Part shown: piece after piece, positions 1-38,791 of the stretch | Position numbering within the stretch: position 1 is the first letter of the stretch | Layout: the number at the start of each line of letters is the position of its first letter | From: an uncultured Acidimicrobiia bacterium | GTDB lineage: Bacteria; Actinomycetota; Acidimicrobiia; Spongiisociales; ZC4RG35 | Direction: 5' to 3' | DNA length: 64,000 nucleotides | NCBI GenBank assembly: GCA_963744905.1 | Contig: CAVUUV010000002.1 | Location: 261,382-325,381 of the forward strand | Translations under genes and position numbers: made by a program | The notes under the pieces: generated by a model | What the model was told of the DNA's origin: nothing | Database searches by the model: none | What the model saw: only the letters and a program-made list of their open reading frames with translations

Positions 1-295
1 GGGACGACAGGAGGATCCTCACCAGGCCGGGCCTGGCCAACAAGACCGAAATTCCCCTCAGCCAACGCTCGAAGGCGAAGATGCGCCAGTTCAGAATCTC
101 TCCCGGGCGGCCCGACGCGAGGCGGGCGGCCAGGGCACCCAGACCCGACCGGGCCGCTACCTCCGGCGTCGACTCCGGTGAGCAAAGCACCGCCACCCCC
201 AGCTCGGACAGAGCAACCTGCAGAGCCCGGGCCACGGTGGACTTCCCCGCCCCCGGGGTTCCCATCAACTCCACCACTATGGGTTCATCGGTCAT
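1..295 (-). CDS. P-loop NTPase / kinase-like protein, N-terminal part (gene continues beyond window start)
   Basis: Minus-strand ATG at 295..293 overlaps the stop of the upstream sulfotransferase (ATGA). Translation MTDEPIVVELMGTPGAGKSTVARAL... contains a Walker A motif GTPGAGKST. Function inferred only from the motif and context. Confidence 0.45.
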   Translation of the reverse strand, partial: MTDEPIVVELMGTPGAGKSTVARALQVALSELGVAVLCSPESTPEVAARSGLGALAARLASGRPGEILNWRIFAFERWLRGISVLLARPGLVRILLSS

Positions 296-1224
296 GGCGA
301 GCGGTAACGGTCCAGAAACGAGAAGTCGGCCGTAGTCTCTGCCATCACCGTCCGGGCCGCCTCGGGCCAGTCCACCCTGTCCGACTCCCCCGGCCGGTCC
401 GCATTCACCAGGGCTGCGCACGCCCTCAGATAGTCCGGGTCGGCTTGCACACCCAGGAAACTGGCGACAGATTCCAAGGTCGGAACGGTTCGGGCCACGA
501 GATCCTCGTAATAGACCGTGGTCAGTCTCGGCTTCAGGAGTGCCCTCAGCATCTCGAGCCGCTCGCACTGCGACCTGTGGTCGTGGGCCGCGTCCACGGG
601 ATCGCGCCCGCTCCTCAAGACCATCGCTGCCACCGAGTCCGCCGGAGCCCGCACCATCTGGACGAACATCACCCGTCTCGGGGCCATTCGCTCGTCGAGT
701 AGGGCGATGCTGGCGGGCGATTCTCCAAGAATCCGCGTGGTCGGCCCCGCCCTGGACACACCTACCACGTGAGGCCGGCCCACACGACCCTGGTCCGATC
801 CCGCGATGGCGAGTGAGTAGCCACCATCGAGCCGTCGGGCTGTCACCCGGCCCTTCATCGCCTCCCGTCGGGACGACCGAGCCAGGACCCCGATAACCTC
901 GTCGGCCGTGAAACCGGCTTCGACCAGGTCCATGACATCCACTTCGTCACCGAACACCACATCAGGGTGGGCATCGAGCATTGCTCCCAGCAAGCTGCCT
1001 CCGCTCTTGGTATGGCCCAGCAGGACACACAGCGTTCCTACCGCCGTGAACCTGCCCGGATCGGCACTGTTGGCGGCCCGGGCCCGCCGCCGGCGTCGCC
1101 AGCGATCGACCGAGGCTACCGGCTCGCTCCGCCGCAATCGGCGCATAGGCTCGCTCTTCAACACCTTCCGGGCCGGCTTCGAGTTGAGGAGCGCCACCCA
1201 GGCCCGCTCCCTGGCGGACGTCAT
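292..1224 (-). CDS. Sulfotransferase family protein (paralog 1 of 4)
   Basis: Track ORF 292..1980 trimmed to the internal ATG at 1224, which overlaps the stop of the ligase gene (tcat = ATGA). Carries PAPS 5'-PSB-like LGHTKSGGSL and a 3'-PB-like region. Similar to Stf0/Sulfotransfer_3-type enzymes. Confidence 0.7.
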   Translation of the reverse strand: MTSARERAWVALLNSKPARKVLKSEPMRRLRRSEPVASVDRWRRRRRARAANSADPGRFTAVGTLCVLLGHTKSGGSLLGAMLDAHPDVVFGDEVDVMDLVEAGFTADEVIGVLARSSRREAMKGRVTARRLDGGYSLAIAGSDQGRVGRPHVVGVSRAGPTTRILGESPASIALLDERMAPRRVMFVQMVRAPADSVAAMVLRSGRDPVDAAHDHRSQCERLEMLRALLKPRLTTVYYEDLVARTVPTLESVASFLGVQADPDYLRACAALVNADRPGESDRVDWPEAARTVMAETTADFSFLDRYRSP

Positions 1225-2669
1225 GACTCCGCTGACATGGAGGACGGTTTCCGTGCCTTGTCCACCCCGCTGAAGGCATTGCCGATCAGTGCCAGACTCA
1301 ACCACCAGACAGCAAGGCCGACGCTGACCACCATGTTCGAGAACGAGCTGACGATGACGTGGCCGAGGATGACGAACCACAGGATGACCACCAGCTTCCT
1401 CCCGTACAGCCCGTTCCCCCGAAGGCGCGACAAGCCCTTGGGCGTCTTGGCCAGCCAGTAAAGGGCGGCCCCGAGGTAGGCGATCAGACCGACCAGTCCC
1501 TGCTCGGCGAGAATGGTAAGGAACAAATTGTGTGATGAGTGATCCTTGGTGGGAACGAACAGGTCTCCCACCCGCGACTGGAACAACGTGTCGTAGCGGT
1601 CGAAGTTGCCATATCCCCAACCGGTGACCGGCTTCTCCTCGAACATCCTCACCGAGGCGATCATCACCGGTAGACGACTGAGGGCGGTCGTCTCGGAGGC
1701 CGGAGAGTAGACCCTCTCCCTCAGATAGCTGGAGAGCCATCCAGAGCTGCCGATGGCGAGAAAGGCGACCACGGCCACCACCCCCGCCACCAGGATCACC
1801 CGGGCCGCATTCCGGTAGGCGAAGAAGACCCCTACCAATACCACGATGGCCGCCAGCCAACTCGCCCGGGAGAAGGTGGCGAAGGCCATCACCACTCCCA
1901 GGGTGAAGCCGGGCAGTCCCCAACGCCGAAGACTTCCCGACAACTGACGCGACAGGTGCAGTACCAGGGCGCCGGCCCACAGGGCCACGATGCCGAAGAC
2001 GTTGGCCTGGTCGAGCGACCCGGTAGTGCGTTCACCTACCCGGCCCAGCAGGCGATCCGGGAGAACCCCGGGGGCAAACCATTGAGCCAACCCGATCAAC
2101 GCCTGCGAGACGAGCACAAACATCAGAATGTAGGTGAACTTGCGCAACTCGGCACGCTTGGGGGGGACAAGGCGAACGAGCAGGTAGAGGATCATGGGGA
2201 CCCCTGCCCGGTCATACAGGTGCCTCAACTCGGCGCCTACGTCGTTGGAGAGGTACAGGATCGAAAGTGCCGTGACGACCAGGTATGCCGCCATCAGCAA
2301 CTCCGCCACGCCCAGCCTGGGCAGGCGGCGATCAGAGGCCCTGGCCATGCTGGAGGCGACCACGACCACCAGGGTGGCCAGTGGCGCCAACCTGTGCACC
2401 AGCCAGTAGGCCAACTTCAGGCTTCCCCCGTCTTCCAGTCCGGACATGAACGGGAGCACCAGCATCCACACACCCACGGTGATCAGTGGATAGCGATGAA
2501 CGACCAGAAACACCGGAACAACCAGCAACACCGCAGCCAACTCGAACCACATTCCACGGCTGACGGCGATGGCCGATACGATCGATCCCACCACCGCTAC
2601 CAGCAGCCACAGGAGTCGACCAGGCCAGCGCCTGATCCAGGGCAGCTGCGGGGCAAGCTCGGCGGTCAC
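1221..2669 (-). CDS. O-antigen ligase / Wzy_C-family polytopic membrane protein
   Basis: 482 aa, about 12 predicted TM helices. Wzy_C-like periplasmic loop motif WGYGNFDRYD...SSHNLFLTILAEQGLVGL. Confidence 0.7.
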   Translation of the reverse strand: MTAELAPQLPWIRRWPGRLLWLLVAVVGSIVSAIAVSRGMWFELAAVLLVVPVFLVVHRYPLITVGVWMLVLPFMSGLEDGGSLKLAYWLVHRLAPLATLVVVVASSMARASDRRLPRLGVAELLMAAYLVVTALSILYLSNDVGAELRHLYDRAGVPMILYLLVRLVPPKRAELRKFTYILMFVLVSQALIGLAQWFAPGVLPDRLLGRVGERTTGSLDQANVFGIVALWAGALVLHLSRQLSGSLRRWGLPGFTLGVVMAFATFSRASWLAAIVVLVGVFFAYRNAARVILVAGVVAVVAFLAIGSSGWLSSYLRERVYSPASETTALSRLPVMIASVRMFEEKPVTGWGYGNFDRYDTLFQSRVGDLFVPTKDHSSHNLFLTILAEQGLVGLIAYLGAALYWLAKTPKGLSRLRGNGLYGRKLVVILWFVILGHVIVSSFSNMVVSVGLAVWWLSLALIGNAFSGVDKARKPSSMSAES

Positions 2670-3670
2670 GTTCCTGTCTCCGAACGAACGAACCTATGGC
2701 TGGGAATCCGGCGTCCGACGCGATCCAGGACCCGATCCCTCACCTCCCACAGGTACATCCTGGCGCCCTCCAGGGGGACCACCACCATCGTGAACCACAA
2801 CCCGGCCAGCCGATTCTGCGAGGGCCGATCCGGCTCGTATCCCAGTCGCTGCATGGGACCGGAGACGGCGCGTTCGATGTAACGAACCTGTCCCTCACTC
2901 AAGACATCCCTAAATCGGCCTATCGAATCGGTGGTTATCGCTCCGGCCCGACGCCGTCCATACGAGCTGTTGCCCGTTTCGTCGAAATCGTCGGCACCCT
3001 GCATTGACAGCATCTCCGCGGTGTAGTCGACCCCGATGAACCCACACACAGTCTTCAAATGCCCTTCGGGGTCGGAAACCAGATCTTCATACCGAACCAG
3101 AAGATAGGAATCCGGCCAACGCACGGTGTTCTTCTCCGCCCGACGGACCGAGAACCGCCATTGCGCCACTCCCACACCGGCGCCGCCTCGCCGGCGCTCC
3201 CACCGCTTCTGCACCGACGCGTAGCGATCGCGGGGATCACGAATCATGTGAATGATCCGTGCCCCCGGGTAGGCTGCCAGGATCTGCTGGGCGTGGCGCT
3301 CCGTCATGAGCGACTTGTCTCCCCACCGGGGCTTTCCCACTCGATCGGCGAATTGGCGTTCCAACAGTTCGAACAGCCGGGGATAGCTAGAAGGCCCCGA
3401 TCGGAAATCTCGTCGCAGACGATCCCAGTCGATGTTCAACTTCACCAGGCGCTTGTAGCGGGACATCACATCGAGGCATCTATCCAGATTGCGATCATGG
3501 GAAAGATCGCCGTAGCGCCGGTAGAAGTACCTCCACAGGTTGGTCCGTCTGGTCATGGCGATCTCGGGATGAGATGAGAGCAGCGCATACATCAAGCTGG
3601 TTCCGGTACGCTCCAATCCGGCCACGAAGACTGGACCGGCCGGCCGCGTGGTTGACGTGCTTTCGGTCAT
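2666..3670 (-). CDS. Sulfotransferase family protein (paralog 2)
   Basis: Start ATG at 3670 overlaps the upstream stop (ATGA). Motifs GLERTGTSLMY (5'-PSB) and IHMIRDPRDRYAS (3'-PB, RDPRD). Confidence 0.75.
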   Translation of the reverse strand: MTESTSTTRPAGPVFVAGLERTGTSLMYALLSSHPEIAMTRRTNLWRYFYRRYGDLSHDRNLDRCLDVMSRYKRLVKLNIDWDRLRRDFRSGPSSYPRLFELLERQFADRVGKPRWGDKSLMTERHAQQILAAYPGARIIHMIRDPRDRYASVQKRWERRRGGAGVGVAQWRFSVRRAEKNTVRWPDSYLLVRYEDLVSDPEGHLKTVCGFIGVDYTAEMLSMQGADDFDETGNSSYGRRRAGAITTDSIGRFRDVLSEGQVRYIERAVSGPMQRLGYEPDRPSQNRLAGLWFTMVVVPLEGARMYLWEVRDRVLDRVGRRIPSHRFVRSETGT

Positions 3671-4530
3671 CGTGCTTGCGCAAACCGCACGCGGGTACGG
3701 AACACCGTTCGGTCGACCAATCCCGAGAGAAACGGCGGCGGGCCGGCCGCCGCCGCGGCATAGCCCAGATCTCTCATCTCTTCTGCAACCAGATCCTCCA
3801 GGACCGGAACGAACCACGCCGGCGGTGGCGACTCCTTGGAATCAGGGGCGATCTCCGGCGACCGTCCACCGGGTTGCGTTTCGAATCCGAGGATGTCGAC
3901 CACTCGGTCCAACACACCCGATGGATCATGGGTCAGCTGCTCCCAAGGCAAGACCCAATACCGGTCTCCGAAGCGATCCTGATTGACGATCGCCAAACGA
4001 GCCGACTGAGCCCAGGTGGCCAGATCCCATCCCCGTCGACCAATCCGCCCGGCGCGGCGGGAGAATCCCAGCAAATGACGGGGATCGCGTATGAGATGCA
4101 CCATACGGGCGTGGGGCAGGTCCGTCAGGAGCGAGGCGGCCAGGCGCTCCAAACCACGCAGCTGAACCACCTTCGCCCGCACCGCATCGACTTCCTGAAT
4201 GGCGGCGAACAACGACCCGTACGACAGCGGAGTGCCGGCGTTATCCAGATCCTCCGCTATGCGGAGGACATCGGCCGACGTCGACCCCACCGACCCGTCC
4301 TTACCCAAAGCGACGGCGCAGAGTGCCAGGTTGGACGGATGGACAAGATCTCCATAGCGTCCGTAATGGCGGGTCCAGAAGTACGCCTTCCGGATCACCT
4401 CGATTCCCGGTGTGCCCGCCAGCAGCCGCCCCAGTTCGGTCTTGCCCGAATGAGCCATGCCCGTGACGAACAGCGGACCGGCCTGCCCTAGATGCCCGAG
4501 ATGATCGCCCGACCTGCTCTCGGGAATCAT
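3667..4530 (-). CDS. Sulfotransferase family protein (paralog 3)
   Basis: Start ATG at 4530 overlaps the upstream stop (ATGA). Motifs GMAHSGKTELG and LIRDPRHLLGF. Confidence 0.65.
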   Translation of the reverse strand: MIPESRSGDHLGHLGQAGPLFVTGMAHSGKTELGRLLAGTPGIEVIRKAYFWTRHYGRYGDLVHPSNLALCAVALGKDGSVGSTSADVLRIAEDLDNAGTPLSYGSLFAAIQEVDAVRAKVVQLRGLERLAASLLTDLPHARMVHLIRDPRHLLGFSRRAGRIGRRGWDLATWAQSARLAIVNQDRFGDRYWVLPWEQLTHDPSGVLDRVVDILGFETQPGGRSPEIAPDSKESPPPAWFVPVLEDLVAEEMRDLGYAAAAAGPPPFLSGLVDRTVFRTRVRFAQAR

Positions 4531-5573
4531 GCCGCAGGCTCCACGATCATTCGCCGGCCTGGCTTCCTTCCCACCAGGCCGGGAAGATGCTGTTGAAGAG
4601 ACTCGGCAACCCTCCACGCCACCATCCGCGCCGTTTGATCCGGCCAGACCCCGAAGATGAACCGCACCCACTGACCGGCACTGAACTGGATGGGGTCCCT
4701 CCGGTAGCCGCGCTCGGCCATACCACGGCCGGCATGAAGGTCGATGAAGGCGCGCTCGAACCCATCGATCCGGTCCCGATGGAGCCCGATGTAGGAATCA
4801 GACAACAATTCGTCGCCGCCGTCTGATGAGAGGAGCCGATCGCGGTGGCGTGGCGCGCCTCGCATTTCGAGCATCTCGGGACGAAAATCCTCCTCCAGGA
4901 ATTCGCACACCGACCGAAGTGTCGCCTCGGTATCACGGATCAAATCCTCAAACCTCACCACCCGGTAACGATCCGGCCACCGCCGCTCGTTGGCCCGGGC
5001 CAGGCGATTGGAGTAATTCCAGCGGGCGACTGCACCCCCCGCCCGGCCTTTGCCGTCGGGCCACAGTGCCAGGGACGCTTCGTAGCGGTCCCTGGGATCA
5101 CGCACCATATGGACCACCCGGAGACCGCCGTAGGAGCGAAACAACTCGGGCGCATACCGCTCTATCAGACCCGTTTGAGCTCCCCACCGAGGCTTGCCTT
5201 CCCGTTCAGCATATTGACGGAGAAAGAGGCCGAACAACTGGGCATAGGTTCTCTCTCCGGCCAGGAAGCGGACGCGGATCTGATCGAAGTCGGGCTTCAA
5301 GAAGACGACGTGCTTGTAGCGACTCATCGCATCGAGGCAGCGGTCCAGATTGCCGTCGTCTCGCAGGTCCCCGTACTGCCGGTAGAAGTAGGTCCACATG
5401 TTCGACCCCACGGCCGGTATGGCGACATTGGGATGGGAGGCGAGAAAAGCGGCCATGGTGGTCTTGCCGCTTCGATCCAGCCCCCCGATGTAGATCGGGT
5501 CGCCCGAACCCGGGCCGACTACCGCCCGGCCGGCCCCCTCGAACAGAGGAGCGGGATCATGCCTCGACGGCAT
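4527..5573 (-). CDS. Sulfotransferase family protein (paralog 4)
   Basis: Motifs GLDRSGKTTMA and VHMVRDPRDRYEAS. Start taken at MPSRHDPAPLF (5573) to minimise overlap with the Wzz-like gene; M at 5621 is an alternative start. Confidence 0.7.
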   Translation of the reverse strand: MPSRHDPAPLFEGAGRAVVGPGSGDPIYIGGLDRSGKTTMAAFLASHPNVAIPAVGSNMWTYFYRQYGDLRDDGNLDRCLDAMSRYKHVVFLKPDFDQIRVRFLAGERTYAQLFGLFLRQYAEREGKPRWGAQTGLIERYAPELFRSYGGLRVVHMVRDPRDRYEASLALWPDGKGRAGGAVARWNYSNRLARANERRWPDRYRVVRFEDLIRDTEATLRSVCEFLEEDFRPEMLEMRGAPRHRDRLLSSDGGDELLSDSYIGLHRDRIDGFERAFIDLHAGRGMAERGYRRDPIQFSAGQWVRFIFGVWPDQTARMVAWRVAESLQQHLPGLVGRKPGRRMIVEPAA

Positions 5574-6573
5574 CGCTGGGCACACTCTCCAATCGATGAG
5601 AGTCGGTCGACGTGTATTCACGCACCTCTATCTCGACGTGAAGGGGCCTGGCCAGCTGCATGGTCTCGATCGAGGCCACCCAGTCTTCGAGCAACCGACG
5701 GCAGGCGTTTCCGTCTACCTCGGGGAAGATGGTCGACAGGGTGCGGGGCTCGGTTGCGCAGAGGACGTCCTGGGGCCGCAAAGCTTCCGACAGGAGGTCG
5801 CCGACGGCACGAATGGTGGCGCCTTCGACCGGTCGATCCTCGTCCTCGAGATCCTCGAGTTTCAATATCCCCACAGAGAAGGTGGATGGCGCCCCGTCGA
5901 GGCGGGCTATCTCTTCTCTCATCCTGAGCTGAAAGTAGTCGGCGTTGAACATCCCCGAGACGGGATCCAGGATCTCGAACGATGTCTTGCGGCCGGCAGC
6001 CCGCGAGAAGTAGTCGACCAGGAATGCCAGGACCCAACCGAGAAGGAAGCCAAACACGGCTCCGATCACGATGGTCAGCGGTTTGTTGGGCCCCGACGGT
6101 GAGTTCGGCGCCTGGGGAGGGTCGAGCGGTTGAAGCTCATAGGCATCGTGGAGAGCATCAACATAGGCGACGGTCTCGGCGCCGATTGCCTGTGCGAAGG
6201 CGAATGACTTGTCGGGATCGGTGCTCTCGACCGAGATCCGGATCATGTTGGTCCCAGTGACCACATCAGAGTTGACCCGTATCCCGCCCTTGGACTGTCC
6301 GACCTGTTCGGCGGCTCGGTCACGTACCAGATCACTGCGGGCTATGGCGGCATAAGTCGAGTTGATCTCGACACCTCTGTTCAGGGTGTTGAATGCCTGT
6401 ACGATCTCGTCGGCGGTCGAGGCGCGGGGACGGACGATGAGGGTGCCCCCGGACTGGTATACCCAGGGCTGTTGAGCCACGAAGGCGATGGTCAAGCCCA
6501 GGGTGAGCGAGAAGCACACCGCCACCAGGATCCAGTGATCCCGCAGGATCTTCAGGTACCGACGAATTTCCAT
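5557..6573 (-). CDS. Wzz/polysaccharide co-polymerase-like protein with C-terminal degenerate GGDEF-like cytoplasmic domain
   Basis: N-terminal YLKILRDHWILVAVCFSLTLGL (Wzz TM1), periplasmic segment, then second TM LTIVIGAVFGFLLGWVLAFLV. The C-terminal ~130 aa align with the GGDEF fold (DPVSGMFNADYF..., SVGILKLEDL, ...CATEPRTLSTIFP in place of RYGGEEF). Confidence 0.6.
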   Translation of the reverse strand: MEIRRYLKILRDHWILVAVCFSLTLGLTIAFVAQQPWVYQSGGTLIVRPRASTADEIVQAFNTLNRGVEINSTYAAIARSDLVRDRAAEQVGQSKGGIRVNSDVVTGTNMIRISVESTDPDKSFAFAQAIGAETVAYVDALHDAYELQPLDPPQAPNSPSGPNKPLTIVIGAVFGFLLGWVLAFLVDYFSRAAGRKTSFEILDPVSGMFNADYFQLRMREEIARLDGAPSTFSVGILKLEDLEDEDRPVEGATIRAVGDLLSEALRPQDVLCATEPRTLSTIFPEVDGNACRRLLEDWVASIETMQLARPLHVEIEVREYTSTDSHRLESVPSDAVEA

Positions 6574-6574
6574 T

Positions 6575-7816
6575 TCAGATACTCCCCTGATAGAACTTGC
6601 CGACTGCCATGGCTACTCGTGCGAGAGCCTCAACCGGCATCTCCGGATACATCGGAAGGGAGAGAATCCTCTGCGCCCCTTCCTCCGTCACCGGAAACGC
6701 CCCCCTCCGATAACCCAGCTCCCGGTGGGCCTCCTGAAGATGTACGGGCAGCGGATAGTGGATTCCCGTTGCCACCCGGTTCCGGCTCAGGTGCTCGATG
6801 AGCGCCTCCCGATCGTCCACCTCGACCACGAATAGATGGTATACGTGTTCGATCGCCGAGAACTCCGTCGGCAACTGAACGGGAAAGGCCGTCAACAGAT
6901 CTCGGTACACGGCGGCTGCCAATCGCCGGGAGGCGTTGGCTTCGTCGAGCCGGATGAGCTTGACCCGGAGAACGGCCGCCTGCAATGTGTCGAGGCGCCG
7001 GTTGAAACCCTTGACAGTGTGGTGGTATTTCACCTCCGACCCCAGGTTCCGCAGTAATCGGATCCGCCGAGCCAACCCGGCGTCGCTGGTCACCACCATC
7101 CCTCCGTCACCAAAGCCACCCAGGTTCTTGCTGGGATAGAAACTGAAGGCGGCAGCATCTCCCAGTGATCCGGCTCGCACGCCCTGGTGCCGTGCGCCGT
7201 GCGCCTGGCATGCATCCTCGATCAACGCCAGACCGTGCCGATGGGCGATCTCCGCCAGCCGACCCATGTCGGCCGGGCGCCCGTAGAGATGGACGGCGAT
7301 GACGGCCGCGGTCGATGGAGTTATCGCCGCTTCGACCTGTTCCGGATCCAGGTCGTAGGTAATTGGATCCACGTCTACCAGCACCGGCCGGGCACCGACC
7401 GCATCTATTGCGTTCACCGTGGCGATGAAGGTGTTGGCCGCGGTGATCACCTCGTCACCCGGGCCGATCCCCATTCCTCGCAGTATCAATTCCAGAGCCG
7501 AGAAGCCCGAGTCGACACCGATGCCGAACCCCGCCTCACAGAACGCGGCGAACTCGGACTCGAAGCGCGCCACCGCCTCCCCGAGCACGAAGTCACCCTT
7601 TTCGAGAACTGCCGCCATGGCCGCGTCGATCGCAGACTTAGATCGCTGGTATTCACCACGGAGGTCTACGAATGGCACCTCACGTTGTGGCTCCACCCGC
7701 AGCCCGGGCTGGTCTCTGGTTCGTAGGTCGATGACGATGCCGTCTGTCTCCTCCTCGTCTTCGGGGACGAGGAGGAGAAGTCCTTCGCCATCCATCTCCG
7801 GTTCCAACGCTGTCAT
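6575..7816 (-). CDS. DegT/DnrJ/EryC1/StrS-family PLP-dependent sugar aminotransferase
   Basis: Motifs ALIEDACQAHGA and FSFYPSKNLGGFGDGGMVVTSD (PLP lysine). N-terminal ~50 aa may be an over-extension. Confidence 0.85.
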   Translation of the reverse strand: MTALEPEMDGEGLLLLVPEDEEETDGIVIDLRTRDQPGLRVEPQREVPFVDLRGEYQRSKSAIDAAMAAVLEKGDFVLGEAVARFESEFAAFCEAGFGIGVDSGFSALELILRGMGIGPGDEVITAANTFIATVNAIDAVGARPVLVDVDPITYDLDPEQVEAAITPSTAAVIAVHLYGRPADMGRLAEIAHRHGLALIEDACQAHGARHQGVRAGSLGDAAAFSFYPSKNLGGFGDGGMVVTSDAGLARRIRLLRNLGSEVKYHHTVKGFNRRLDTLQAAVLRVKLIRLDEANASRRLAAAVYRDLLTAFPVQLPTEFSAIEHVYHLFVVEVDDREALIEHLSRNRVATGIHYPLPVHLQEAHRELGYRRGAFPVTEEGAQRILSLPMYPEMPVEALARVAMAVGKFYQGSI

Positions 7817-7825
7817 GACCGCCTC

Positions 7826-8899
7826 CTATCGAGCCGCTTGGCCGCTGGTTGATTCGACCAGATCCCGAGCCGACATGGTGTTCACGTCCATCGGGGCGCC
7901 GCTGTCAGCCAGCGACTTCTGTGCGGCCTCGATGACCTGCACGACTCTCAGGCCGGAAGCGCCATCGGAAGTCGGCGCTTTCCCGGTACGAATCGATTCG
8001 ATGAACTGGCGGCATTCGACTCGAAGCGGTTCCTCGAAATGAATGTGTGGGCTGACCACACTTCCATAGTGGTAGGCGAATTGGAAGTCTCCATAGGTGT
8101 CCGTCCGGCGGATGGTGGTCACGCGTTTGTCGAATATGCGCAGCTTCTCCATCGGTTCCACATCGTCATAGACCACCATCTTCTCGGAACCGACCACGGT
8201 TATGCGCCGCGTCTTCAGAGGATCCAGCCAACTCATCCTCGTATTGGCAGTCATGCCGTTGGGATAGTTGAGGGTGAGATAAGCCACATCCGCCACGTCC
8301 TCGTGCACACAGGCCGCACCTCTGGCAGACACGTCGGAGGGCATCGTCCCGGTCAGATAGTTCAGGATCGAGATGTCGTGGGGAGCCAGATCCCAGATGA
8401 CATTGAGGGTGGGATGAAACAAGCCGAGGCCGACGCGCACACCATCGATGTAGAGGATTCGGCCCAGCTCCCCGCTGTCGATGATTCCCTTGAGGTCCCT
8501 CACCGCCTGGTTGTACTCGAAAGTGTGACCCACCATCAGGATTCTGTCGGCGTGCTCGGCCTTGATCGCAAGATCGGCCGCGGTCGTGGCGGACACGGTC
8601 AGTGGCTTCTCCACCAGCACGTGATGTCCCGACATGAGGAAGTCGGAGGCGATGGCGTGGTGGGTCTCGGGAGGCGTGCAGATTGCCACCGCGTCCAGAT
8701 CCAGTTCTAGGAGTTCCCGATAGTCGGTCGTGAAGACATCCACGGTCCGATAGCGCTCCGCCACCCGCTCGAGCAGGTTGCGGTTGAGATCGGCGATTCC
8801 GACCAGGTCGACATCCGGCATCTCCCAGAAATTGCGAATGATGTTCGGGCCCCAGTAGCCGCTACCTACGACGGCTGCCCGTACGCGTTGGCTTGTCAA
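7826..8899 (-). CDS. Gfo/Idh/MocA-family NAD(P)-dependent sugar dehydrogenase (WbpB-like)
   Basis: N-terminal Rossmann AAVVGSGYWGPNIIRNF and a Gfo/Idh/MocA C-terminal domain. TTG start at 8899 overlaps the upstream stop (TTGA). Confidence 0.8.
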   Translation of the reverse strand: MTSQRVRAAVVGSGYWGPNIIRNFWEMPDVDLVGIADLNRNLLERVAERYRTVDVFTTDYRELLELDLDAVAICTPPETHHAIASDFLMSGHHVLVEKPLTVSATTAADLAIKAEHADRILMVGHTFEYNQAVRDLKGIIDSGELGRILYIDGVRVGLGLFHPTLNVIWDLAPHDISILNYLTGTMPSDVSARGAACVHEDVADVAYLTLNYPNGMTANTRMSWLDPLKTRRITVVGSEKMVVYDDVEPMEKLRIFDKRVTTIRRTDTYGDFQFAYHYGSVVSPHIHFEEPLRVECRQFIESIRTGKAPTSDGASGLRVVQVIEAAQKSLADSGAPMDVNTMSARDLVESTSGQAAR

Positions 8900-9585
8900 C
8901 CCGCTCCCTCCCCTGCAAATACGGCCGGAAGAGTGAGGAACACAATCCGGAGATCGAACACGAGGCTCTGTCGAGCGATATATTCCAGATCGAGATCGAT
9001 CATCTCTTCAAATGGAGTGGTGGCCCTGCCCCTTATCTGCCACCAGCCGGTCAGACCCTGGGGGGTGGCGAACCGGCGCATGTGGCGCTCCCCGTACAGA
9101 GGAACCTCATAGTCGATGGGCGGCCGGGGCCCAACCAGGCTCATGTCTCCGCGAACCACATTCCACAGCTGGGGAAGCTCATCCAGACTGAAAGCCCTGA
9201 GAAACCGTCCGACACGGGTGATCCGGCTGTCTCGTCCCAGCTTGTACGACCCCTCTGTCCGCATCGATTCGGCGGCCGAGACCGTTACGTCGTCACCCTG
9301 GATGTAGGCAGCGATGTATTCGCGATGGACCGACTGGTCGGCTTGCCACCGCATGGTCCGGAACTTGTAGAGCGTGAAGGGTCGGACCCCCCACGCATCG
9401 GCCCTCCGCGTCAGAGGCCGAGACCCGATCCGCGTCTGGCGAAAGAACACCGGACCGGGACTGTCTAGCCGTATCAATAGGGCCACAACCGCCAATACCG
9501 GCAGGGCCAAGACAAGCAAGATCGACCCGACGCCGATATCGAATCCGCGCTTGGCCAGGTAATAACCCGAGGAACGGTCACCCAT
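8896..9585 (-). CDS. Bacterial sugar transferase (undecaprenyl-phosphate sugar phosphotransferase, PglC/WbaP C-domain type)
   Basis: Motifs [10 protein letters not shown]...LYKFRTMR...[21 protein letters not shown]. Start placed at [16 protein letters not shown] (9585); the track ORF extends to 9684. Confidence 0.8.
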
Positions 9586-9996
9586 GCGGGGAACGCGGAT
9601 ATCTCTCCAGTCGTGCGAGATGGTCACGAGTGACCACCCGCGCCGTGTTCGCCCCCACGTCCTGCAACCCAATCCCCGCGCCAAGAGCGCACGAGGTAAG
9701 CGTCGACCCCAACTCCCAATTCAAGCCTCCCGTTTACAGCGTCCCTGCGGTCGCTTTCTGCCCACCTGCAGGATACCGGGAGTTCACGGAAAGTGAAGGA
9801 CCTAGGGACCCATTGTCGGGAGAGTTGTACCGCCATCGGGGGAGTCGAAGCGGCAAGCGACCGTCGTCGCACCATCCACCCGGTCGGTTTGGCAAGAGGT
9901 GGGGCTCCGACCGTTCAAAGATCTCGGTCATCCGGTGCAAGAGAAACCCTCTCTTCCCGGATCCCGACCCTCCCCGCTCACGAGGCGGGGAGGGTC

Positions 9997-10072
9997 TGGT
10001 AGCCCCGACCGGATTCGAACCGGCGTTACCGGCTTGAGAGGCCGGCGTCCTGGGCCACTAGACGACGGGGCC
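9997..10072 (-). tRNA. tRNA-Glu (anticodon CUC)
   Basis: Minus-strand sequence GGCCCCGTCGTCTAGTGG...CCGGC-CTCTCAA-GCCGG...GGTTCGAATCC...TCGGGGCTACCA. Cloverleaf folds by hand with U33 and A37; CCA is encoded. Confidence 0.85.
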
Positions 10073-10101
10073 AAAGGAAGGCCTCGAATTCGGGGGCCTT
10101 C

Positions 10102-10173
10102 GCTCGGGGGGAAGGACTCGAACCCTCAACGACAGGACCAGAACCTGCTGTGTTACCAATTACACCACCCCCG
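10102..10173 (-). tRNA. tRNA-Gln (anticodon CUG)
   Basis: Minus-strand TCGGGGG-TG-GTGT-AATTGGTA-ACAC-A-GCAGG-TTCTGGT-CCTGT-CGTT-GAGGG-TTCGAGT-CCTTC-CCCCCGA-G. All stems pair; 72 nt; CCA not encoded. Confidence 0.8.
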
Positions 10174-10409
10174 AACGCGACTCGGATAGGACGAGCGCGG
10201 GGAGATGGGCAGTCTAGCGCCCCGCTGTCGGTCCCGTCACACCGACCATCCCCGACCGAACCCCGCTACACGCAACCGACGGGGGGAGGCCCCAACCAGA
10301 ATGAACCACCCGAGTGGCCGATCGGCGCCGTGATCGGGAGCGCCTGATCAGGGCATGAATCGCCCAACCATCAACAGGTCGAGGTCGATACTCCGCGAGG
10401 GGATCTCAC

Positions 10410-13400
10410 TCAGGGATGAGACCTGAAGTAGAAATCGTCGATCCAGAGACTGTCGATCACAGGCTCGAACTTGGAGCTGTCGGCGTCGGTTGCTCGGACC
10501 AGAACCGTCCCCGACACCCCGGTCGGCAGGTCGAACGTCTGGTAGGTGCCGTCGTCGGTGGTCTTCGTCACCCGCATCATGTCCAGCCAGGATGACCCGC
10601 CGTCGGTCGAATACGAGAACTGGAAATCCTCCGCTCCGGAGTGGTGAGCCTGGAGGAAGAAGGTGACTGTGCTGCCACCCGTGACCGAGAATGTCCATTG
10701 CTGCTCCAGACGAGTCCTCTTCCCGCCTCCATAGGCTTCCTCGCTGATGACGAGATAATCACCGTCGTCGGCGAAGGTGCTTGAGAGATCGCCGGCAACC
10801 ACCGATCCGTAGACGGTGGTCTGGGAGGAGGCATCGTCATCGGTGGCTACCTGGTCGTTGTCCACGATGATCACACTGGCATCGGAGGGAAAGCCGATCT
10901 GGTAGTTGGCATCAGTGCTCAAAGTGATGACCACCGATTCGTTTCCCTCCGCAGCGGTGTCGTCAACCGCTGCCACCGGAACGAGAGCCGTCGACTGACC
11001 TGCCCCGAGAGTCATCGAACCCGACAAAGGCCCATAGTCGTCACCGGGGGTAGCCGTGCCGGAAACGGTGTAGAAGACGGTCAGATCGGCGGAAACGTCA
11101 TTGCGGGAGATCGTGAACCCGCCATCGGCTCCGCCCTCGTAGGCGAAAGGCCCGGTTGCGTCGACCGACACCTCCGGAAGAGGGGGCTGGGGGTTCACCG
11201 TCTTTATCGCCATGTAGTCAACGAAGAGCGTATCGGTCGACCCGTTGCCGATGGTGCGGTCGGAGTCGATGGCTCGCACGATGACCGTTCCGCTGATCGT
11301 GGGTGGCAGATCGGCCCGATAAGTGGTGTCGGAGCCGGCCGACACCACCACCAACGGTTCGAAACTCACGCCACCATCGGTCGAATACGAGAACTCGAAG
11401 TCGTCACCCTCCGAGTTGGCGGTGCGTCGGGCTTCGAGCACGAAGTTGATGCTGTCCCCGCGCTCGACGTCGAAGGTCCAGCGATGCTCGAGCCTGCTCA
11501 CCCTGCGATTGCGTGGACCACCGGTCTGCTCCTCGGTTAGTTGCTCATACACATCGTCGGTGGCGGTGGTATCTGCCAGGCTCCCGCTCACCGAGCCGAG
11601 CAGGGTCTGCTCGGATCCGGCAAACTGGTCGAGAGTGGTCTCTCCGATGGAGACCGTGACGGTGGCGACGTTCGACAAATCGGTCCCATCCGAGGCCTGA
11701 TAGGTGAAACTGTCCGAGCCGGAGAACCCGGCCGTCGGGGTGTAAGTAACCGTCCCGTCCGTCTCCAACGTCACCGACCCGTTGGCCGGCGTCGACAGAT
11801 TCGTCACCGACAACACATCCCCATCCGGATCACTGTCATTGGCCAACACATCCACATTCACCGGCTGACCCTTGGTAGTAGAAGCCGAATCGTCCACCGC
11901 CACCGGAGCCCGATTGGCAACCGTCACCGACACCGTCGCCACATTCGACAAATCGGTCCCATCGGACGCCTGATAGGTGAAACTGTCCGAGCCGGAGAAC
12001 CCGGCCGTCGGGGTGTAAGTAACCGTCCCGTCCGTCTCCACCGTCACCGACCCGTTGGCCGGCGTCGACAGATTCGTCACCGACAACACATCCCCATCCG
12101 GATCACTGTCATTGGCCAACACATCCACATTCACCGGCTGACCCTTGGTAGTAGAAGCCGAATCGTCCACCGCCACCGGAGCCTGATTGGCGACCGTCAC
12201 CGACACCGTCGCCAGGTTGGAGGGGTTGTTCCCGTCCGATGCCTGGTAGGTGAAGGTATCCACCCCGGAGAATCCCCCCGCCGGCGTATACGTCACGGTC
12301 TCATCCACCTCCACCACCACCGAGCCATTGGAAGGGGCGGAGGCGATCTGGACCGTCAAGGGATCACTTTCAGGATCCGTGTCGTTGGCCAACACATCCA
12401 CATTGACCGGCTGACCCTTGGTAGTAGAAGCCGAATCGTCCGCCGCCACCGGAGCCTGATTGGCGACCGTCACCGACACCGTCGCCACATTCGACAAATC
12501 GAGTCCCATCCGAAGCCTGATACGTGAAACTGTCCGAACCGGAGAACCCGGCCGTCGGGGTGTAAGTAACCGTCCCGTCCGTCTCCACCGTCACCGACCC
12601 GTTGGCCGGCGTCGACAGATTCGTCACCGACAACACATCCCCATCCGGATCACTGTCATTGGCCAACACATCCACATTCACCGGCTGACCCTTGGTGGTA
12701 GAAGCCGAATCATCCACCGCCACCGGAGCCTGATTGGCAACCGTCACCGACACCGTCGCCACATTCGACAAATCGGTCCCATCCGACGCCTGATAGGTGA
12801 AACTGTCCGAGCCGGAGAACCCGGCCGTCGGGGTGTAAGTAACCGTCCCGTCCGTCTCCACCGTCACCGACCCGTTGGCCGGCGTCGACAGATTCGTCAC
12901 CGACAACACGTCCCCATCCGCATCATTGTCATTGGCCAACACATCCACATTCACCGGCTGACCCTTGGTGGTAGAAGCCGAATCGTCCACCGCCACCGGA
13001 GCCTGATTAGGGGCCGGATCCACCGTAATCGTCACCGTGGCCGTGTCAGAAGCCACACCGTCAGAGGCGTCATAGGTGAACGAATCCACACCCGAGAACC
13101 CGGCATCAGGCGTATAGGTCACCGTCCTGTCCGTCTTCACCGTCACCGACCCGTTGGCCGGAGTCGACAGATTCGTCACCGACAACACGTCCCCATCCGG
13201 ATCACTGTCATTGGCCAGCACATCCACATTCACCGGCTGACCCTCGGGGGTCGACGCTGTGTCATCGACCGCCACCGGAGCCCGATTGGCAACCGTCACC
13301 GACACCGTCGCCACATTCGACACATCGGTCCCATCCGACGCCTGATACGTGAAGGTATCCACACCCGAGAACCCCGACCCTGGCGTGTAAGTCACCGTCC

Positions 13401-16400
13401 CGTCCGTCTCCACCGTCACCGACCCGTTGGCCGGCGTCGACAAATTCGTCACCGACAACACATCCCCATCCGGATCACTGTCGTTGGCCAACACATCCAC
13501 ATTCACCGGTTGACCGGCATCCGTCGACGTACTGTCGTCGACCGCCACCGGGGCCTGATTGGCAACCGTCACCGACACCGTCGCCACATTCGACAAATCG
13601 GTCCCATCCGAGGCCTGATAGGTGAAACTGTCCGAGCCGGAGAACCCGGCCGTCGGGGTGTAAGTAACCGTCCCGTCCGTCTCCACCGTCACCGACCCGT
13701 TGACCGGCGTCGACAGATTCGTCACCGACAACGCATCCCCATCCGGATCACTGTCATTGGCCAACACATCCACATTCACCGGCTGACCCTTGGTAGTAGA
13801 AGCCGAATCGTCCACCGCCACCGGAGCCTGATTGGCGACCGTCACCGACACCGTCGCCACATTCGACAAATCGGTCCCATCGGACGCCTGATAGGTGAAA
13901 CTGAATCCGAGCCGGAGAACCCGGCCGTCGGGGTGTAAGTAACCGTCCCGTCCGTCTCCAACGTCACCGAACCGTTGGCCGGCGTCGACAGATTCGTCAC
14001 CGACAACACATCCCCATCCGGATCACTGTCATTGGCCAACACATCCACATTCACCGGCTGACCCTTGGTAGTAGAAGCCGAATCGTCCACCGCCACCGGA
14101 GCCTGATTGGCAACCGTCACCGACACCGTCGCCACATTCGACAAATCGGTCCCATCCGAGGCCTGATAGGTGAAACTGTCCGAGCCGGAGAACCCGGCCG
14201 TCGGGGTGTAAGTAACCGTCCCGTCCGTCTCCACCGTCACCGACCCGTTGGCCGGCGTCGACAGATTCGTCACCGACAACACATCCCCATCCGGATCGCT
14301 GTCGTTGGCCAACACATCCACATTGACCGGCTGACCCTTGGTAGTAGAAGCCGAATCGTCCACCGCCACCGGAGCCTGATTGGCGGTGCCCGCGGTGACG
14401 GTCACGTTGAAGCTGGTTGAGTCGGTGAGGGCGACGGGCTTGGGCGTCAGGGCGACCGTGAAGGCGTTACGCGTATTCTCGCCGGTGCTGGCCGACCCGC
14501 TGGCGACCGCAGTCCCCACCGGTCCGGCAGTGGATTGGACCTGGTCACCCGCCAGGACACGGTTCTTCCCGGTTCCTGAACTACCCACTTGTTCCGACCA
14601 CCGTTCGGTTACCCCGGTGGGCACGGTATTGAATCCCACGCCGGGATCAGTGGCGCTCGCCCCTCTCCAACCCCACAGACGCAATACCCGGGCGTTGTCG
14701 ACCGTCGTGTTCAAGTCGGGGGCTTCGAGGGTCGCTATGTCCTCGGCCGAGGCAGCCCAGGCGTCGATGGGGTTCTCGGGGTCCACACCCACGTATGCCC
14801 CGATTCCTCCAGCCATACGGCCTTCGGCGTATCCCTGATCGAAGCTGTACGAAGTGGGTTCGGATGAACCGGCGATCTTGTAATAGACGCTCTGGTGGCC
14901 GTTGGAGGTGCTGGGAATCGTGGCCAGCTCGGTCCATCCAGCCGGCGGGGTCATGGATGGGAGGTCGCCCCGGTAGCGCACCTGCGCCAGCAACAGATCA
15001 CCGGCCTGGACCCCGTCCGGTTTGGGGATCGTAAGCACCGAGCCCGAGGTGCTGGTGTCGATAGCCGACGCCGCAGACCGGAAAGCCGGCGCACCGGCGT
15101 CGGTCGACGCTCCGTCGGCGACCGTCACGGTCACAGGCCCATACGTTCCCGCGTCTCCCACTGTCGGGGAGAAGGTCATCTCCAAGGTGGCGGCGTCGAA
15201 CGAGCCGAACGAGGGAAGCCCATCGACGGTGACCGTCAGCGGGTCACCGTCAGGGTCGGAGGCCGAGACCGCCACCACGGCAGTCTCGCCCTCTGCCACT
15301 GTGACGTCACTGATCGGATCGACCGTTGGGGGAGAGTTGGGTGGCCCGTTGACGGTCACGATCACGTCGTCCGAGCCAGACAGCTCTCCGTCAGAGGCGG
15401 TCAGCTCCAGGGTATAAGTGCCTTCCGTGTCGAAGCTGGCCGTGGTAGAGGCGGAATTGGGGTCTGCGAACGTGACCTGACCGGGGCCGGTCACCATGGA
15501 CCAGGTTTGGGTGACCGAACCCGAAGGCAGCCCGTCATCCGTAACAGAACCGGACAGAGTCACATCCGACGGTAGGGTGATGGTCTGGTCGGGCCCGGCG
15601 TCGACGACCGGCGCCAGGTTGCCGGGGGGATCGGCGAGATTGGGGGCCGAAAGCTCGAACACCTTGCCGTCGTTCTCGTTCGAATTGGCTCCATTGTCGA
15701 CCGCCCGGTCGGCGATCCACAGATCCATCCCCGAGCTGTTGGTGGCGGGGGCAAGACCCAGGCCGGAAACGTGGGTCATGGCCGACACACTGATGTTGAT
15801 CGTGCGAATCAAGGTCCCGTCGAGGCCGATCTCAAACACCTTGTGCACACTGCTGACCGGATTCCGGGCACCCACATAGAGCGACCCGCGCGAGGGGGCG
15901 GCCACCAGTCCCTCCCAGTCCGTCGGTCCCAGTCCGGAGATGTCGAAATGGGAAACCGAGTCGTTTCCGTTGCCGAATATCCCGTCAGTCGGGTCGACCC
16001 GGTAGATCTCGCTGTCCACCCCGCTGAGAATGAACAGGTCACCGGTGGCCGTGTCGAAGGTGGGATCTTCGGTATCGCTGGCATTGAAAGGCGGCCCGCC
16101 GGTGTCGATGAACGACACCGCATCATCGCCGGTTCCGAAGGCTCCATCCCCTCCGGGGCGAATCACGAACACGCCCTGAGCGCTGTCGTCTGACACGAAC
16201 AGGGTGTTGGACCCGGGGTCGTAACCGACGCCGGTTGGTTCCTTGGAGAAACCGACAGAGCCTCCGAAGGTGGCCGCGGTTGGGCCCCAGAAGGTGCCTG
16301 TGCCCACCACGGTGCCGGTCCTCAGCGCCCGCCACATGTTCACGTTGTGCCAACCCGCACCGGTCGTCTCGTCCACCTCGGAGTCCACCACGACGAGTTG

Positions 16401-17378
16401 GTCCACCCCCGGCAACCACGTCACTCCCGAGGGGTCGGGTGCCGCCGGGTCCCAGGCCGAAGTGTCGATCGTCTGGACCAGCGTGGCGTAGTCCTCTGTC
16501 GCAGTCACTGCGGCCACCTGAACCAGGGAGACCTCCGTTATCCCACCGAGGGAAGTGGCTGTCCCTGAGTCCGCGACGTAGAGGTTCTGGATCGAGGGGG
16601 CATCGGTCGAGTCCGTGCTGGGGGCAAACGTCATGTCCTCGGGCGACATCAGACCCACCGAGGAAAGGTCGTAGGAGACCGCCACCTCTCCATTCGAGTC
16701 GAGCCCGTCGAGACGGTTGCCGTCGCTCGACAAGACGTACAGCCGATCATCTGACGGATTGAAGGCGATCTGGCCCGCATCGACTCCGCTCGGCAGGGCG
16801 AGCGAGCCGGATTGGAGGCCGGTGGACAAATCTGTGACCACAACGTCATGACCACTTGCGGACAGCGAATACAGCACCCCGCTATCAGGATCCACCGTCC
16901 GGCCGATCGCCGAGACGCTGCCGGACTCCGGGATGATTTGAACCGCCGGGGTCCTCGATTCCAGGTCGCTCCCTTGCATCACCACGGCGTCCCGATCCCC
17001 GAACAGAAGCAGTTCATCCTCAATCGGGTCGAAAGCTGCCGTTTCCAGTGCCGAGATAGCCGCCACTACTGAGGTTCCGATCAGCTTGGAGCGCCGATCG
17101 AGTCGAACCAGCGCCGTCTCATTGCCCTTTCGCCCTCCGACGACGAATTGACTGCGCGATGGGTCATATGCCAGGGCAGTGGGACGAGCGATACCGACTT
17201 CGTCCGTCCAGACGGTGCGTACGAGCCGGCCGATCAGGGGAGTTGAAATCTGCCCGGCCGCCTCAGTGCGGGCGGATGACGTGGCGCCGACAGCCAGGGC
17301 TGCTTGCGACGGCATGAGACTGAACAACATGCCCATGAGCGCGACGATGACAACAAAACGCCGCCCAGAAGAACCCAA
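10410..17378 (-). CDS. Giant secreted repeat/adhesin-like protein (PKD + ~10 cadherin-like 95-aa repeats + Calx-beta + duplicated C-terminal domain), interrupted by two compensating frameshifts
   Basis: Three track ORFs (13842..17552, 12370..13869, 10410..12509) encode contiguous, homologous repeat sequence. ORFs 1 and 3 share a frame and ORF 2 is offset. Candidate TTG start at ~17378 sits 6 nt after GGAGG and is followed by a signal-peptide-like GSSGRRFVVIVALMGMLFSLMPSQAALA. A PKD-like segment GPDQTITLPSDVTLSGSV...TYTLELTASDG and a Calx-beta-like segment DYGPLSGSMTLGAGQSTALVPVAAVDDTAAEGNESVVITL are present. Confidence 0.6.
11650..14430 (-). repeat. Tandem ~285-bp (95-codon) near-identical coding repeats (cadherin-like VANQAPVAVDDSASTTKGQPVNVDVLANDSDPDGD... 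units), ~10 copies
   Basis: Directly visible as near-identical DNA periodicity; inter-copy identity mostly >90%. Confidence 0.85.
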
Positions 17379-17609
17379 AATCCAGCCTCCCACCGACTGC
17401 CCGTCTCTCGATCCTGACGGACGATAACACCCGACGCCCCCCGGGCAATGGTCTCCGGGACCCATCCTCGAGGGGATCAGGCGGAACCTCGGAGCGAGGA
17501 TCGGCCGAGCGCCGGTCGCCAAGCTGTCGGAGCGGCGGCGGGTGGCCGGCACGCCCGGGGCCAGCCCGCCTCGGGACGGGGTAATCCCCTCTCCTCCACC
17601 CGCGTAGCT

Positions 17610-18408: not shown

Positions 18409-19176
18409 TCAACGGGCTCGTAGCACGGACCGACCCGACAGCGACCAGGCCACACCGGCGACAACCATCGACGCCAGGGCCAGGACGACAACTCCAACTC
18501 GTGCCACAGGTACGAACGAGGCGATCCCCGCCGTCTGATGGGAGGCGGCCTCGAAATCGTTGAGCGTGGTCTCGTAGCCGACCAGCGCCGTTTGCGCATC
18601 ACCGAGACTGGCCTCGATCTCGTGAATTCGATCAGTCAGATCACCCATGTTCTGGCCGCTGCGGCGTATGACCGGGAGAAGAGCGTCGATGTTGGCTCCC
18701 TGTTCCTCGATCGCCTGGGGGAGTCCCTGCAGTTCCACCTGCACCTGGGCCAATGCCTGATCGAATGGCACCTGGGGGTTGTAGGGCACACCCAGACGGG
18801 ACAGCGCTCGCATCGACTGGTCGACAACCGAGGCTGTCCCGATGAGCGCCGGCAAACTCGACTGGACGGCGGTGAGAGCAGGAGGGATCTGGTTCTCGAG
18901 CACATCCGTCACGCCTCCGAGTGTGTCGATCAGATCATCGGTGGAGGTGGCGACGTCGTTCGTCGTCCGTGACACGACACCCAGGGTGGTCCGCAACTCG
19001 GAAACGGTCTGCTGGGTGGAATCAAGCAGATCACGGGTAGGCGAAACGGCGGTCGTCGGTGTCAACGAGACAGACGCCTCGACCACGTCCAATCCGAACC
19101 ACGCCAGTCCGGCTGCAGACAGCGCGGCGAGCGCAAAAAAGGCTGAGGCGATTCGTATCAAGGTCTTCAGGGACAT
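18409..19176 (-). CDS. Hypothetical bitopic membrane protein (N- and C-terminal TM helices, central helical/coiled region)
   Basis: Long ORF with coding-like composition; no recognised motif. Confidence 0.45.
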   Translation of the reverse strand: MSLKTLIRIASAFFALAALSAAGLAWFGLDVVEASVSLTPTTAVSPTRDLLDSTQQTVSELRTTLGVVSRTTNDVATSTDDLIDTLGGVTDVLENQIPPALTAVQSSLPALIGTASVVDQSMRALSRLGVPYNPQVPFDQALAQVQVELQGLPQAIEEQGANIDALLPVIRRSGQNMGDLTDRIHEIEASLGDAQTALVGYETTLNDFEAASHQTAGIASFVPVARVGVVVLALASMVVAGVAWSLSGRSVLRAR

Positions 19177-38364: not shown

Positions 38365-38791
38365 GTCTGATCGAGAACGCGGTGCGGCCGTTGTCGAGTT
38401 GGCGTTCGTCACGGCCTTCCTTCTCATCCCCTTGTTGATCGGTTTGATCGACGTTGGGCGCATGATCTACACGAGAATTGCGCTGCAAGAAGCAGCTCAG
38501 GAAGGGGTGCTATATGCCTCATTTCCTGAGGGATCTGTCCCCATTACTGCAGCCGACATTACAGCTCGAGTGATTGAGTCGGTCTCATATCCTCCACTCG
38601 ATTCATCAGGCGTTTCTGTCTATTGCGAGCTCGTGCCTCGGTTGGTCGATGCAGCCGAGGTGGCGGTCCAGGTCGACTACCAGATCGACTCATTCTTTCC
38701 GTTCACCGGCCCCGTGACCATCAGCCGCACGGCCGTCAGTGATCGATTCCTCGACTCATGCCCGGCGGGAAGCCTGAGTCCGTTACCCTAG
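38354..38791 (+). CDS. TadE-like pseudopilin
   Basis: ERGAAVVELAFVTAFLLIPLLIGLIDVGRMIYTRIALQEAAQEG. Confidence 0.65.
   Translation: MAHESDRERGAAVVELAFVTAFLLIPLLIGLIDVGRMIYTRIALQEAAQEGVLYASFPEGSVPITAADITARVIESVSYPPLDSSGVSVYCELVPRLVDAAEVAVQVDYQIDSFFPFTGPVTISRTAVSDRFLDSCPAGSLSPLP

Follow-up and report, generated by a model that had tools for sequence, protein, structure and literature searches.

The window analysed here, a 64,000-nucleotide stretch of DNA from an uncultured Acidimicrobiia bacterium, contains a gene for what is best read as a short-loop, PCP-2b-like polysaccharide co-polymerase (PCP), joined behind its second transmembrane segment (TM2) to a degenerate GGDEF domain. Judging from the sequence, we consider it somewhat probable that a catalytically dead GGDEF domain, acting as a receptor for cyclic di-GMP (c-di-GMP) through its I-site, has here replaced the tyrosine kinase of such co-polymerases. 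Control of a co-polymerase by c-di-GMP in this way may represent an undescribed switch on polysaccharide assembly. The gene, which we call PCP–GGDEF, is the following:

5557..6573, minus strand: PCP–GGDEF, 338 amino acids (aa); NCBI MGA7269595.1, 'hypothetical protein', from an Acidimicrobiia metagenome-assembled genome (MAG).

The initial annotation of this DNA had placed an open reading frame (ORF) at these coordinates. The frame of 338 codons is indeed present, and it runs on the minus strand; a plus-strand reading was rejected because that frame is full of stops. All of the peptides then quoted (YLKILRDHWILVAVCFSLTLGL, LTIVIGAVFGFLLGWVLAFLV, DPVSGMFNADYF, SVGILKLEDL, VGDLLSEAL, CATEPRTL and LHVEIEVRE) occur in the translation. 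The ATG at 6573 lies 1 nt past the TGA that ends DegT, the upstream gene, and has GGGGAG ahead of it, and the ATG of the downstream sulfotransferase gene, at 5573, is 17 nt within PCP–GGDEF. Given this spacing and overlap, PCP–GGDEF is an internal, translationally coupled operon gene.

It had also been considered that the C-terminal region might be a frameshift artefact of a separate downstream gene. Such an origin, whether by frameshift or by an assembly error that joined a PCP gene to its downstream neighbour, can be given practically no weight. The same single ORF recurs in independent assemblies, with 100% identical copies in assemblies from other samples, and a word-indexed search returned 32 homologues that are 33-88% identical to the window protein and match it in length and layout. 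Indeed, homologues down to ~30% identity keep this layout in more than 150 clusters. The PCP–GGDEF family is large and conserved: when 1.84 billion cluster representatives were searched exhaustively with a profile, 377 clusters reached E<=1e-30, and nearly all of the best 150 of these match the profile end to end. Of 176 family sequences aligned with MAFFT, 160 hold both modules, and these 160, which contain the C-terminal domain, are the representatives behind every count out of 160 given below. Automated annotation sees both domains as well, since some homologues bear the JGI name 'capsular polysaccharide biosynthesis protein/GGDEF domain-containing protein'. The parts of the window protein are as follows:

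6472..6534, minus strand: first transmembrane segment (TM1), aa ~14-34, from hydropathy and a model helix at 14-34, with the basic N-terminus MEIRRYLKILRDH before it.
6079..6471, minus strand: extracytoplasmic alpha/beta PCP domain, aa ~35-165, from Pfam Wzz and GNVR, TIGR01006 and Foldseek, ending in the Pro-rich motif LDPPQAPNSPSGPNKP.
6016..6078, minus strand: TM2, aa ~166-186, with GxxxGxxxG (G172, G176, G180), from hydropathy, conservation and the model.
5605..5976, minus strand: cytoplasmic degenerate GGDEF-fold domain, aa ~200-323, from profile and predicted fold.
5767..5778, minus strand: I-site motif RPQD (R266-D269), 5 residues upstream of the degenerate signature, aligning onto RKSD of DgcR (6zxm).
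5737..5751, minus strand: EPRTL (aa 275-279) replacing GG(D/E)EF, from profile alignment; canonical in 0/160, family consensus GDGTF.

The C-terminal module is homologous to GGDEF domains, and the evidence for this is decisive at the family level. Taken alone, the window protein matches Pfam GGDEF (PF00990) at an E of 0.13 (12.5 bits, cutoff 23.8; aa 202-317 on positions 3-129 of 161 in the profile), which is insufficient by itself, and family profiles and structure were therefore needed. PF00990 is matched by 12 of the 32 close members (best 6e-7), and distant members reach 47-63 bits. A profile built from the C-terminal domain matches more than 40 solved GGDEF domains, the best being DgcR 6zxm at 1.7e-15, and structure prediction gives a GGDEF fold with high confidence. 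Both checks proposed in the initial annotation, by profile and by structure, thus came out in favour of the GGDEF assignment. Its description of the C-terminal ~130 cytoplasmic residues as following the GGDEF pattern stands as regards the fold; the tail is in fact ~150 aa long, with ~125 of these folded. The window subfamily is without the last C-terminal helix/strand of the canonical domain, and the linker after TM2 is short (aa 187-202), with low predicted local distance difference test (pLDDT) values at 194-200.

The active site of this domain has decayed. It had been claimed that RYGG(D/E)EF is replaced by CATEPRTL and that the domain should be inactive, and we find every catalytic signature lost. 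In the profile alignment GGEEF of DgcR falls on 'gdgtl' of the family, which corresponds to EPRTL in the window protein (the order there being RPQD at 266-269, VLCAT and EPRTL), and none of the 160 representatives carries GG[DE]EF or the near variant A/SGDEF. Likewise, no member with an intact GGDEF, such as an active ancestor-like fusion, occurs among the 176 family sequences. The DxD metal-binding positions are K/E in the window protein and variable across the family, and the GHxxGD region is shorter by 4 residues, with loss of the substrate-binding N/D (the NxxxD region is absent or deleted). With signature, metal Asp and substrate N/D all gone, canonical cyclase activity is excluded. The confidently predicted fold might still be taken to favour cyclase activity of a non-canonical kind (diguanylate or other nucleotidyl), supplying the polysaccharide machinery with a signal on the spot, but set against these losses this seems to us extremely improbable.

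In contrast to the catalytic residues, the I-site motif has been kept. The survey of homologues suggested in the initial annotation shows RxxD intact, at canonical spacing, in 111/160 representatives (R in 120/160, D in 128/160), and among the ~123 positions of the domain R266 ranks 7th and D269 5th in conservation. The DgcR structure used in the alignment is the c-di-GMP-bound one. Since many active cyclases (about half) are without RxxD, its retention while catalysis has fully decayed argues for selection on ligand binding. By analogy with the receptors compared below, we think it fairly plausible, and slightly more likely than not, that the domain binds c-di-GMP at RxxD.

It is also possible, though on present evidence unlikely, that the domain works independently of any ligand, as a structural or oligomerisation module or as a docking platform (possible partners in the cluster being the initiating transferase, an APH-fold kinase or a sulfotransferase). 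It would then resemble the degenerate GGDEF domains of FimX, LapD and CsrD, which do not sense c-di-GMP. However, R266 and D269 rank with the best-conserved residues of the domain while the catalytic ones have all drifted, and RxxD is dispensable for the fold but kept at exact spacing, which points to selection at the site. Two findings nevertheless weigh against a c-di-GMP receptor. First, position 297, which from the DgcR alignment and the PleD numbering we take to be the equivalent of PleD R390, and which corresponds to PelD R402, is Asp in the window protein, and Arg in only 18/160 representatives (D34, E25, R18, A17, G16); the additional arginine of a primary I-site is thus missing. Second, RxxD has been lost in ~31% of representatives, with enrichment among the long forms that have extra tails.

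A nucleotide other than c-di-GMP (GTP, (p)ppGpp or a different cyclic dinucleotide, for instance) could alternatively be sensed, either in the I-site or in what is left of the active site. There are precedents for the binding of GTP/ATP by degenerate GGDEF domains (PdeA of Caulobacter and GdpP), and the PDB matches of the domain include PleD complexes with ppGpp and pppGpp (9g85, 9g86). In the window protein, however, the active-site half is eroded, with GG, D/E-E, DxD and NxxxD absent or deleted, and the motif that is conserved is that of the c-di-GMP I-site; we therefore regard this possibility as improbable.

The N-terminal part has the canonical PCP topology that the initial annotation had assigned to it (TM1, ectodomain, TM2). 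A Kyte-Doolittle scan (19-residue) gives exactly two hydrophobic peaks, at aa ~14-34 and ~166-186, both of which are helices in the AlphaFold model. The cytoplasmic-side flanks of both are net positive, which fits an N-in/C-in arrangement. The loop between them measures ~130 aa, rather than the ~160 aa first proposed. Pfam finds Wzz (PF02706) at aa 2-90 (2e-4, 21.9 bits, cutoff 25.5) and GNVR (PF13807) at aa 150-185 (6e-4, 20.1 bits, cutoff 27.7). Relatives exceed these cutoffs (homologue P0066 with Wzz 26.8 and GNVR 36, P0044 with Wzz 26.1), and at E<=0.01 GNVR is found in 27/32 homologues and Wzz in 14/32. The closest curated model is that of the CpsC family in NCBIfam, TIGR01006, to which aa 7-189 align with 32.6 bits against a curated cutoff of 296, a score so far under the cutoff that it signifies resemblance to the CpsC family, not membership. 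The AlphaFold model (pLDDT 82) retrieves KpsE (8tsi) and Wzc (7nhr, 9exo) in Foldseek at E~1e-6. As in other PCPs, a Pro-rich motif is followed by a Gly-rich TM2: in LDPPQAPNSPSGPNKP...GAVFGFLLG, P159 and G175 are invariant and P156, P162, N163 and G179 are conserved in at least 90%, and L150, D151, P156, P159, P162 and N163 are all invariant or near-invariant. By the usual definitions of the PCP classes, a short alpha/beta ectodomain without a long helical hairpin, in a monoderm host, leads to the PCP-2b-like class.

The kinase that accompanies such proteins was not found, either fused or adjacent. The protein has no P-loop family match in Pfam or NCBIfam, its tail ...HRLESVPSDAVEA is without a Tyr cluster, and no domain of the bacterial tyrosine kinase (BY-kinase) type was annotated by Pfam among the neighbours in loci L001, L003, L004, L016 and L018. 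In the PCP-2b/BY-kinase pairs (CapA/CapB, CpsC/CpsD, EpsA/EpsB) and in the PCP-2a protein Wzc we recognise the same two-TM co-polymerase, with a Pro/Gly-rich motif before TM2, that acts with Wzy. A cytoplasmic regulatory module likewise follows TM2, being attached in Wzc and docked by the tail in CapA. Unlike these, the window protein lacks both the P-loop kinase and the C-terminal Tyr cluster, its module has a GGDEF fold, and its regulatory input would be a nucleotide ligand, not autophosphorylation. The nearest non-family relative found (P0034) has a P-loop domain of the ParA/MRP type.

By analogy, the known proteins closest to the window protein in mode of action would be PssE, YdaK and PelD. 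PssE of Listeria monocytogenes and YdaK of Bacillus subtilis are of Gram-positive type, combine an N-terminal membrane anchor with a cytoplasmic degenerate GGDEF domain, have RxxD 5 residues upstream, and are encoded in an exopolysaccharide (EPS) operon. Compared by description only, they differ in that neither has a PCP/Wzz module as its membrane part and in that each serves a synthase-dependent pathway, with a GT2 synthase instead of Wzx/Wzy. PelD of Pseudomonas aeruginosa, the analogue already named in the initial annotation, sits in the inner membrane and has a degenerate GGDEF domain, the RxxD of which binds c-di-GMP and turns on Pel synthesis. PssE, with the signature DKDDA, binds c-di-GMP with a Kd of 0.79 uM and two ligands per protein, and is essential for EPS (PMC4125290). 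The present architecture had been thought uncharacterised, and full-text literature searches aimed at it found no published description of a PCP/Wzz–GGDEF fusion; papers that contain both terms (on Phormidesmis, Fibrobacter, Sphingomonas and Actinoplanes, and a Bcs review) treat Wzz/PCP and GGDEF separately. Post-translational c-di-GMP control of a Wzx/Wzy-type pathway does exist, in that HfsJ of Caulobacter crescentus is a c-di-GMP-activated glycosyltransferase of the Wzy-type holdfast pathway. The control point there is a soluble glycosyltransferase with another binding mode, not a co-polymerase.

In the mechanism that we propose, the C-terminal domain would bind c-di-GMP at its I-site, where the ligand would probably take the form of the intercalated dimer known from PleD, PelD and PssE. 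Occupancy of the site might then reach the membrane module by way of the short linker next to TM2, or c-di-GMP might cross-link neighbouring protomers of the PCP oligomer, an idea with analogies in the cross-linked I-sites of PleD and in the Wzc/CapAB oligomers, which are controlled by a kinase ring. As a result, Wzy polymerisation, chain length or export would be gated or tuned, the degenerate GGDEF domain holding the regulatory place that belongs to the BY-kinase phosphorylation cycle in the CapAB, CpsCD and Wzc systems. Our analysis supports the suggestion in the initial annotation of a nucleotide-sensing receptor domain at this point. A more far-reaching proposal, which we put forward only tentatively and would not yet bet upon, is that the tyrosine-kinase 'clock' of Wzy assembly has in Acidimicrobiia been replaced by a second-messenger switch, intercalated c-di-GMP dimers at RxxD cross-linking the degenerate GGDEF domains to set polymerisation/export of a heavily sulfated polysaccharide on or off. 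If true, this would be the first c-di-GMP checkpoint at the level of a co-polymerase, and a natural experiment on the role of the PCP-2 cytoplasmic ring. There is still debate about the way in which PCPs govern polymerisation by Wzy and about the contribution of their cytoplasmic modules, and nearly all documented cases of direct c-di-GMP control of polysaccharide machinery concern synthase-dependent systems (BcsA, Alg44, PelD, PgaCD, PssE). The apparent swap of a BY-kinase for an I-site-bearing dead GGDEF domain therefore offers a testable link between the PCP and c-di-GMP fields.

PCP–GGDEF lies within a polysaccharide cluster, the other genes of which in the window are:

8896..9684, minus strand: initiating phosphoglycosyl transferase (Bac_transf; Pfam 4e-57), first gene of the conserved block.
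7826..8899, minus strand: GFO/IDH/MocA sugar oxidoreductase (Pfam, synteny).
6575..7816, minus strand: DegT/DnrJ/EryC1 sugar aminotransferase (Pfam, synteny).
4527..5573, minus strand: sulfotransferase 1 (Sulfotransfer_3; Pfam), overlapping PCP–GGDEF by 17 nt.
3667..4530, minus strand: sulfotransferase 2 (Pfam), start approximate.
2666..3673, minus strand: sulfotransferase 3 (Pfam), start approximate.
1221..2669, minus strand: Wzy-type polymerase (Wzy_C / O-antigen ligase family; Pfam, synteny).
292..1224, minus strand: sulfotransferase 4 (Pfam), start approximate.

The block Bac_transf, GFO, DegT, PCP–GGDEF, (in some, Wzx), three sulfotransferases, Wzy and a sulfotransferase is found in whole or in part in 15/15 loci (L001-L015). 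Bac_transf is syntenic in 13/15; it is absent upstream of the PCP–GGDEF copy at 10001 in L009, L010 and L012, and L009 and L010 have it beside another copy. Wzy, four genes downstream of PCP–GGDEF, is syntenic in the 13 of these 15 loci that reach that far (L002 and L011 end earlier). Every locus long enough to show neighbours is a Wzy-dependent cluster with several sulfotransferases, and even the divergent members P0107, with a helix-turn-helix (HTH) tail, and P0120, without RxxD, lie in Wzx/Wzy clusters with sulfotransferases. Past the position of the window's left edge the clusters of relatives go on with genes for a P-loop protein, an APH-fold kinase and a GT4, and with one further sulfotransferase gene: L001 and L003 have the APH-fold kinase and GT4 and then the further sulfotransferase, and L004 has GT4 and the further sulfotransferase with no APH-fold gene. 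From these relatives we infer that the window cluster probably continues in a similar way. A Wzx flippase (Polysacc_synt) was found neither in the window cluster (1-9684) nor among the other window ORFs scanned; in several relatives a flippase directly follows PCP–GGDEF (L003 11065-12618, L018 4162-5724, L016 5868-7319). No ORF with a canonical GG[DE]EF, as a cognate cyclase would have, is present in the 64-kb window or in L001-L015. EAL-like strings in the window were dismissed as chance short-motif matches in unrelated ORFs, one of them inside the DegT gene.

There are four sulfotransferase genes in the window (292-5573, minus strand) and 5-6 in complete clusters, together with Wzy, GT4, APH-fold kinase and amino-sugar enzymes. 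The sulfotransferase cluster is conserved across Acidimicrobiia MAGs (L001, L003-L010, L012-L016 and L018). From this gene content, the product of the cluster is probably a heavily sulfated surface polysaccharide, a prediction for a bacterial group in which none has been described; literature searches found no relevant work on c-di-GMP or sulfotransferases in Acidimicrobiia. Bacterial sulfated EPS is regarded as largely cyanobacterial (PMC8205485, PMC13390465), and sulfated polysaccharides of other bacteria are considered rare. Wzx/Wzy clusters with sulfotransferases, for which sulfated polysaccharides are proven or proposed, are those for synechan (xss) of Synechocystis and wps-1 of Actinoplanes missouriensis (PMC8205485, PMC13390465). 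Like the Acidimicrobiia clusters, wps-1 has a protein-kinase-like gene (APH in Acidimicrobiia). The Actinoplanes wps Wzz proteins differ in that their C-terminal domain is the usual one for polysaccharide biosynthesis/export (BY-kinase-type), and the main text of the wps paper (PMC13390465) nowhere mentions GGDEF. A conserved, sulfotransferase-rich polysaccharide locus is thereby flagged in an abundant and mostly uncultured actinobacterial class.

The 11 genome matches of the family were all MAGs, assigned to Acidimicrobiia, Acidimicrobiales, Microthrixaceae or otherwise to Actinomycetota. Longer relatives (450-560 aa) add small domains after the degenerate GGDEF module, of the peripheral-subunit-binding, helix-turn-helix or helix-hairpin-helix kinds (P0086 and P0092, E3_binding; P0107, HTH_23; P0066, HHH_5). 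Some Acidimicrobiales and Microthrixaceae clusters have paralogous PCP–GGDEF genes, 2-3 per locus:

L009: 121-1089 (minus strand), 7379-8197, 10001-10678.
L010: 367-1101 (minus strand), 7378-8388, 10001-11047.
L012: 1896-2813, 10001-10963.

In these multi-copy loci the copy at 10001 retains RxxD; in other copies either R or D is gone (IEPE, APHD, RPHE) or the signature hairpin contains an insertion. The presence of several paralogues per locus suggests hetero-oligomeric or specialised co-polymerases.

Elsewhere in the window, three consecutive overlapping ORFs (699, 499 and 1236 aa) with Big_9/cadherin-like/PKD repeats occupy 10410-17552 on the minus strand. They contain a tandem array at 11671-14384 (273-bp unit, ~10 copies, 87% identity), and are probably one giant surface adhesin (>2400 aa) split by frameshifts or by collapse of the repeat assembly. 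Long plus-strand ORFs over the same interval were discarded as mirror ORFs. Tad/Flp-type pilus genes lie at 23680-27843 (minus strand) and 43015-44229 (plus strand), with two T2SSF (TadB/C-like) proteins, a T2SSE ATPase and a TadE/G-like pseudopilin. Together the polysaccharide, adhesin and Tad genes make up a surface/adhesion region of the kind that c-di-GMP often controls, which is circumstantial. Four ORFs with high GC at third codon positions, at 45177-46913 (plus strand), 48716-49945, 26719-27843 and 18409-19176 (all minus strand), have no Pfam match at E<=1e-4; they encode 578, 409, 374 and 255 aa, respectively. Finally, an ISL3-family transposase gene (40464-41849, minus strand) adjoins the stretch of lowest GC in the window (0.575 at 38-40 kb, against ~0.64 elsewhere), which suggests a recent insertion at 38001-41849.

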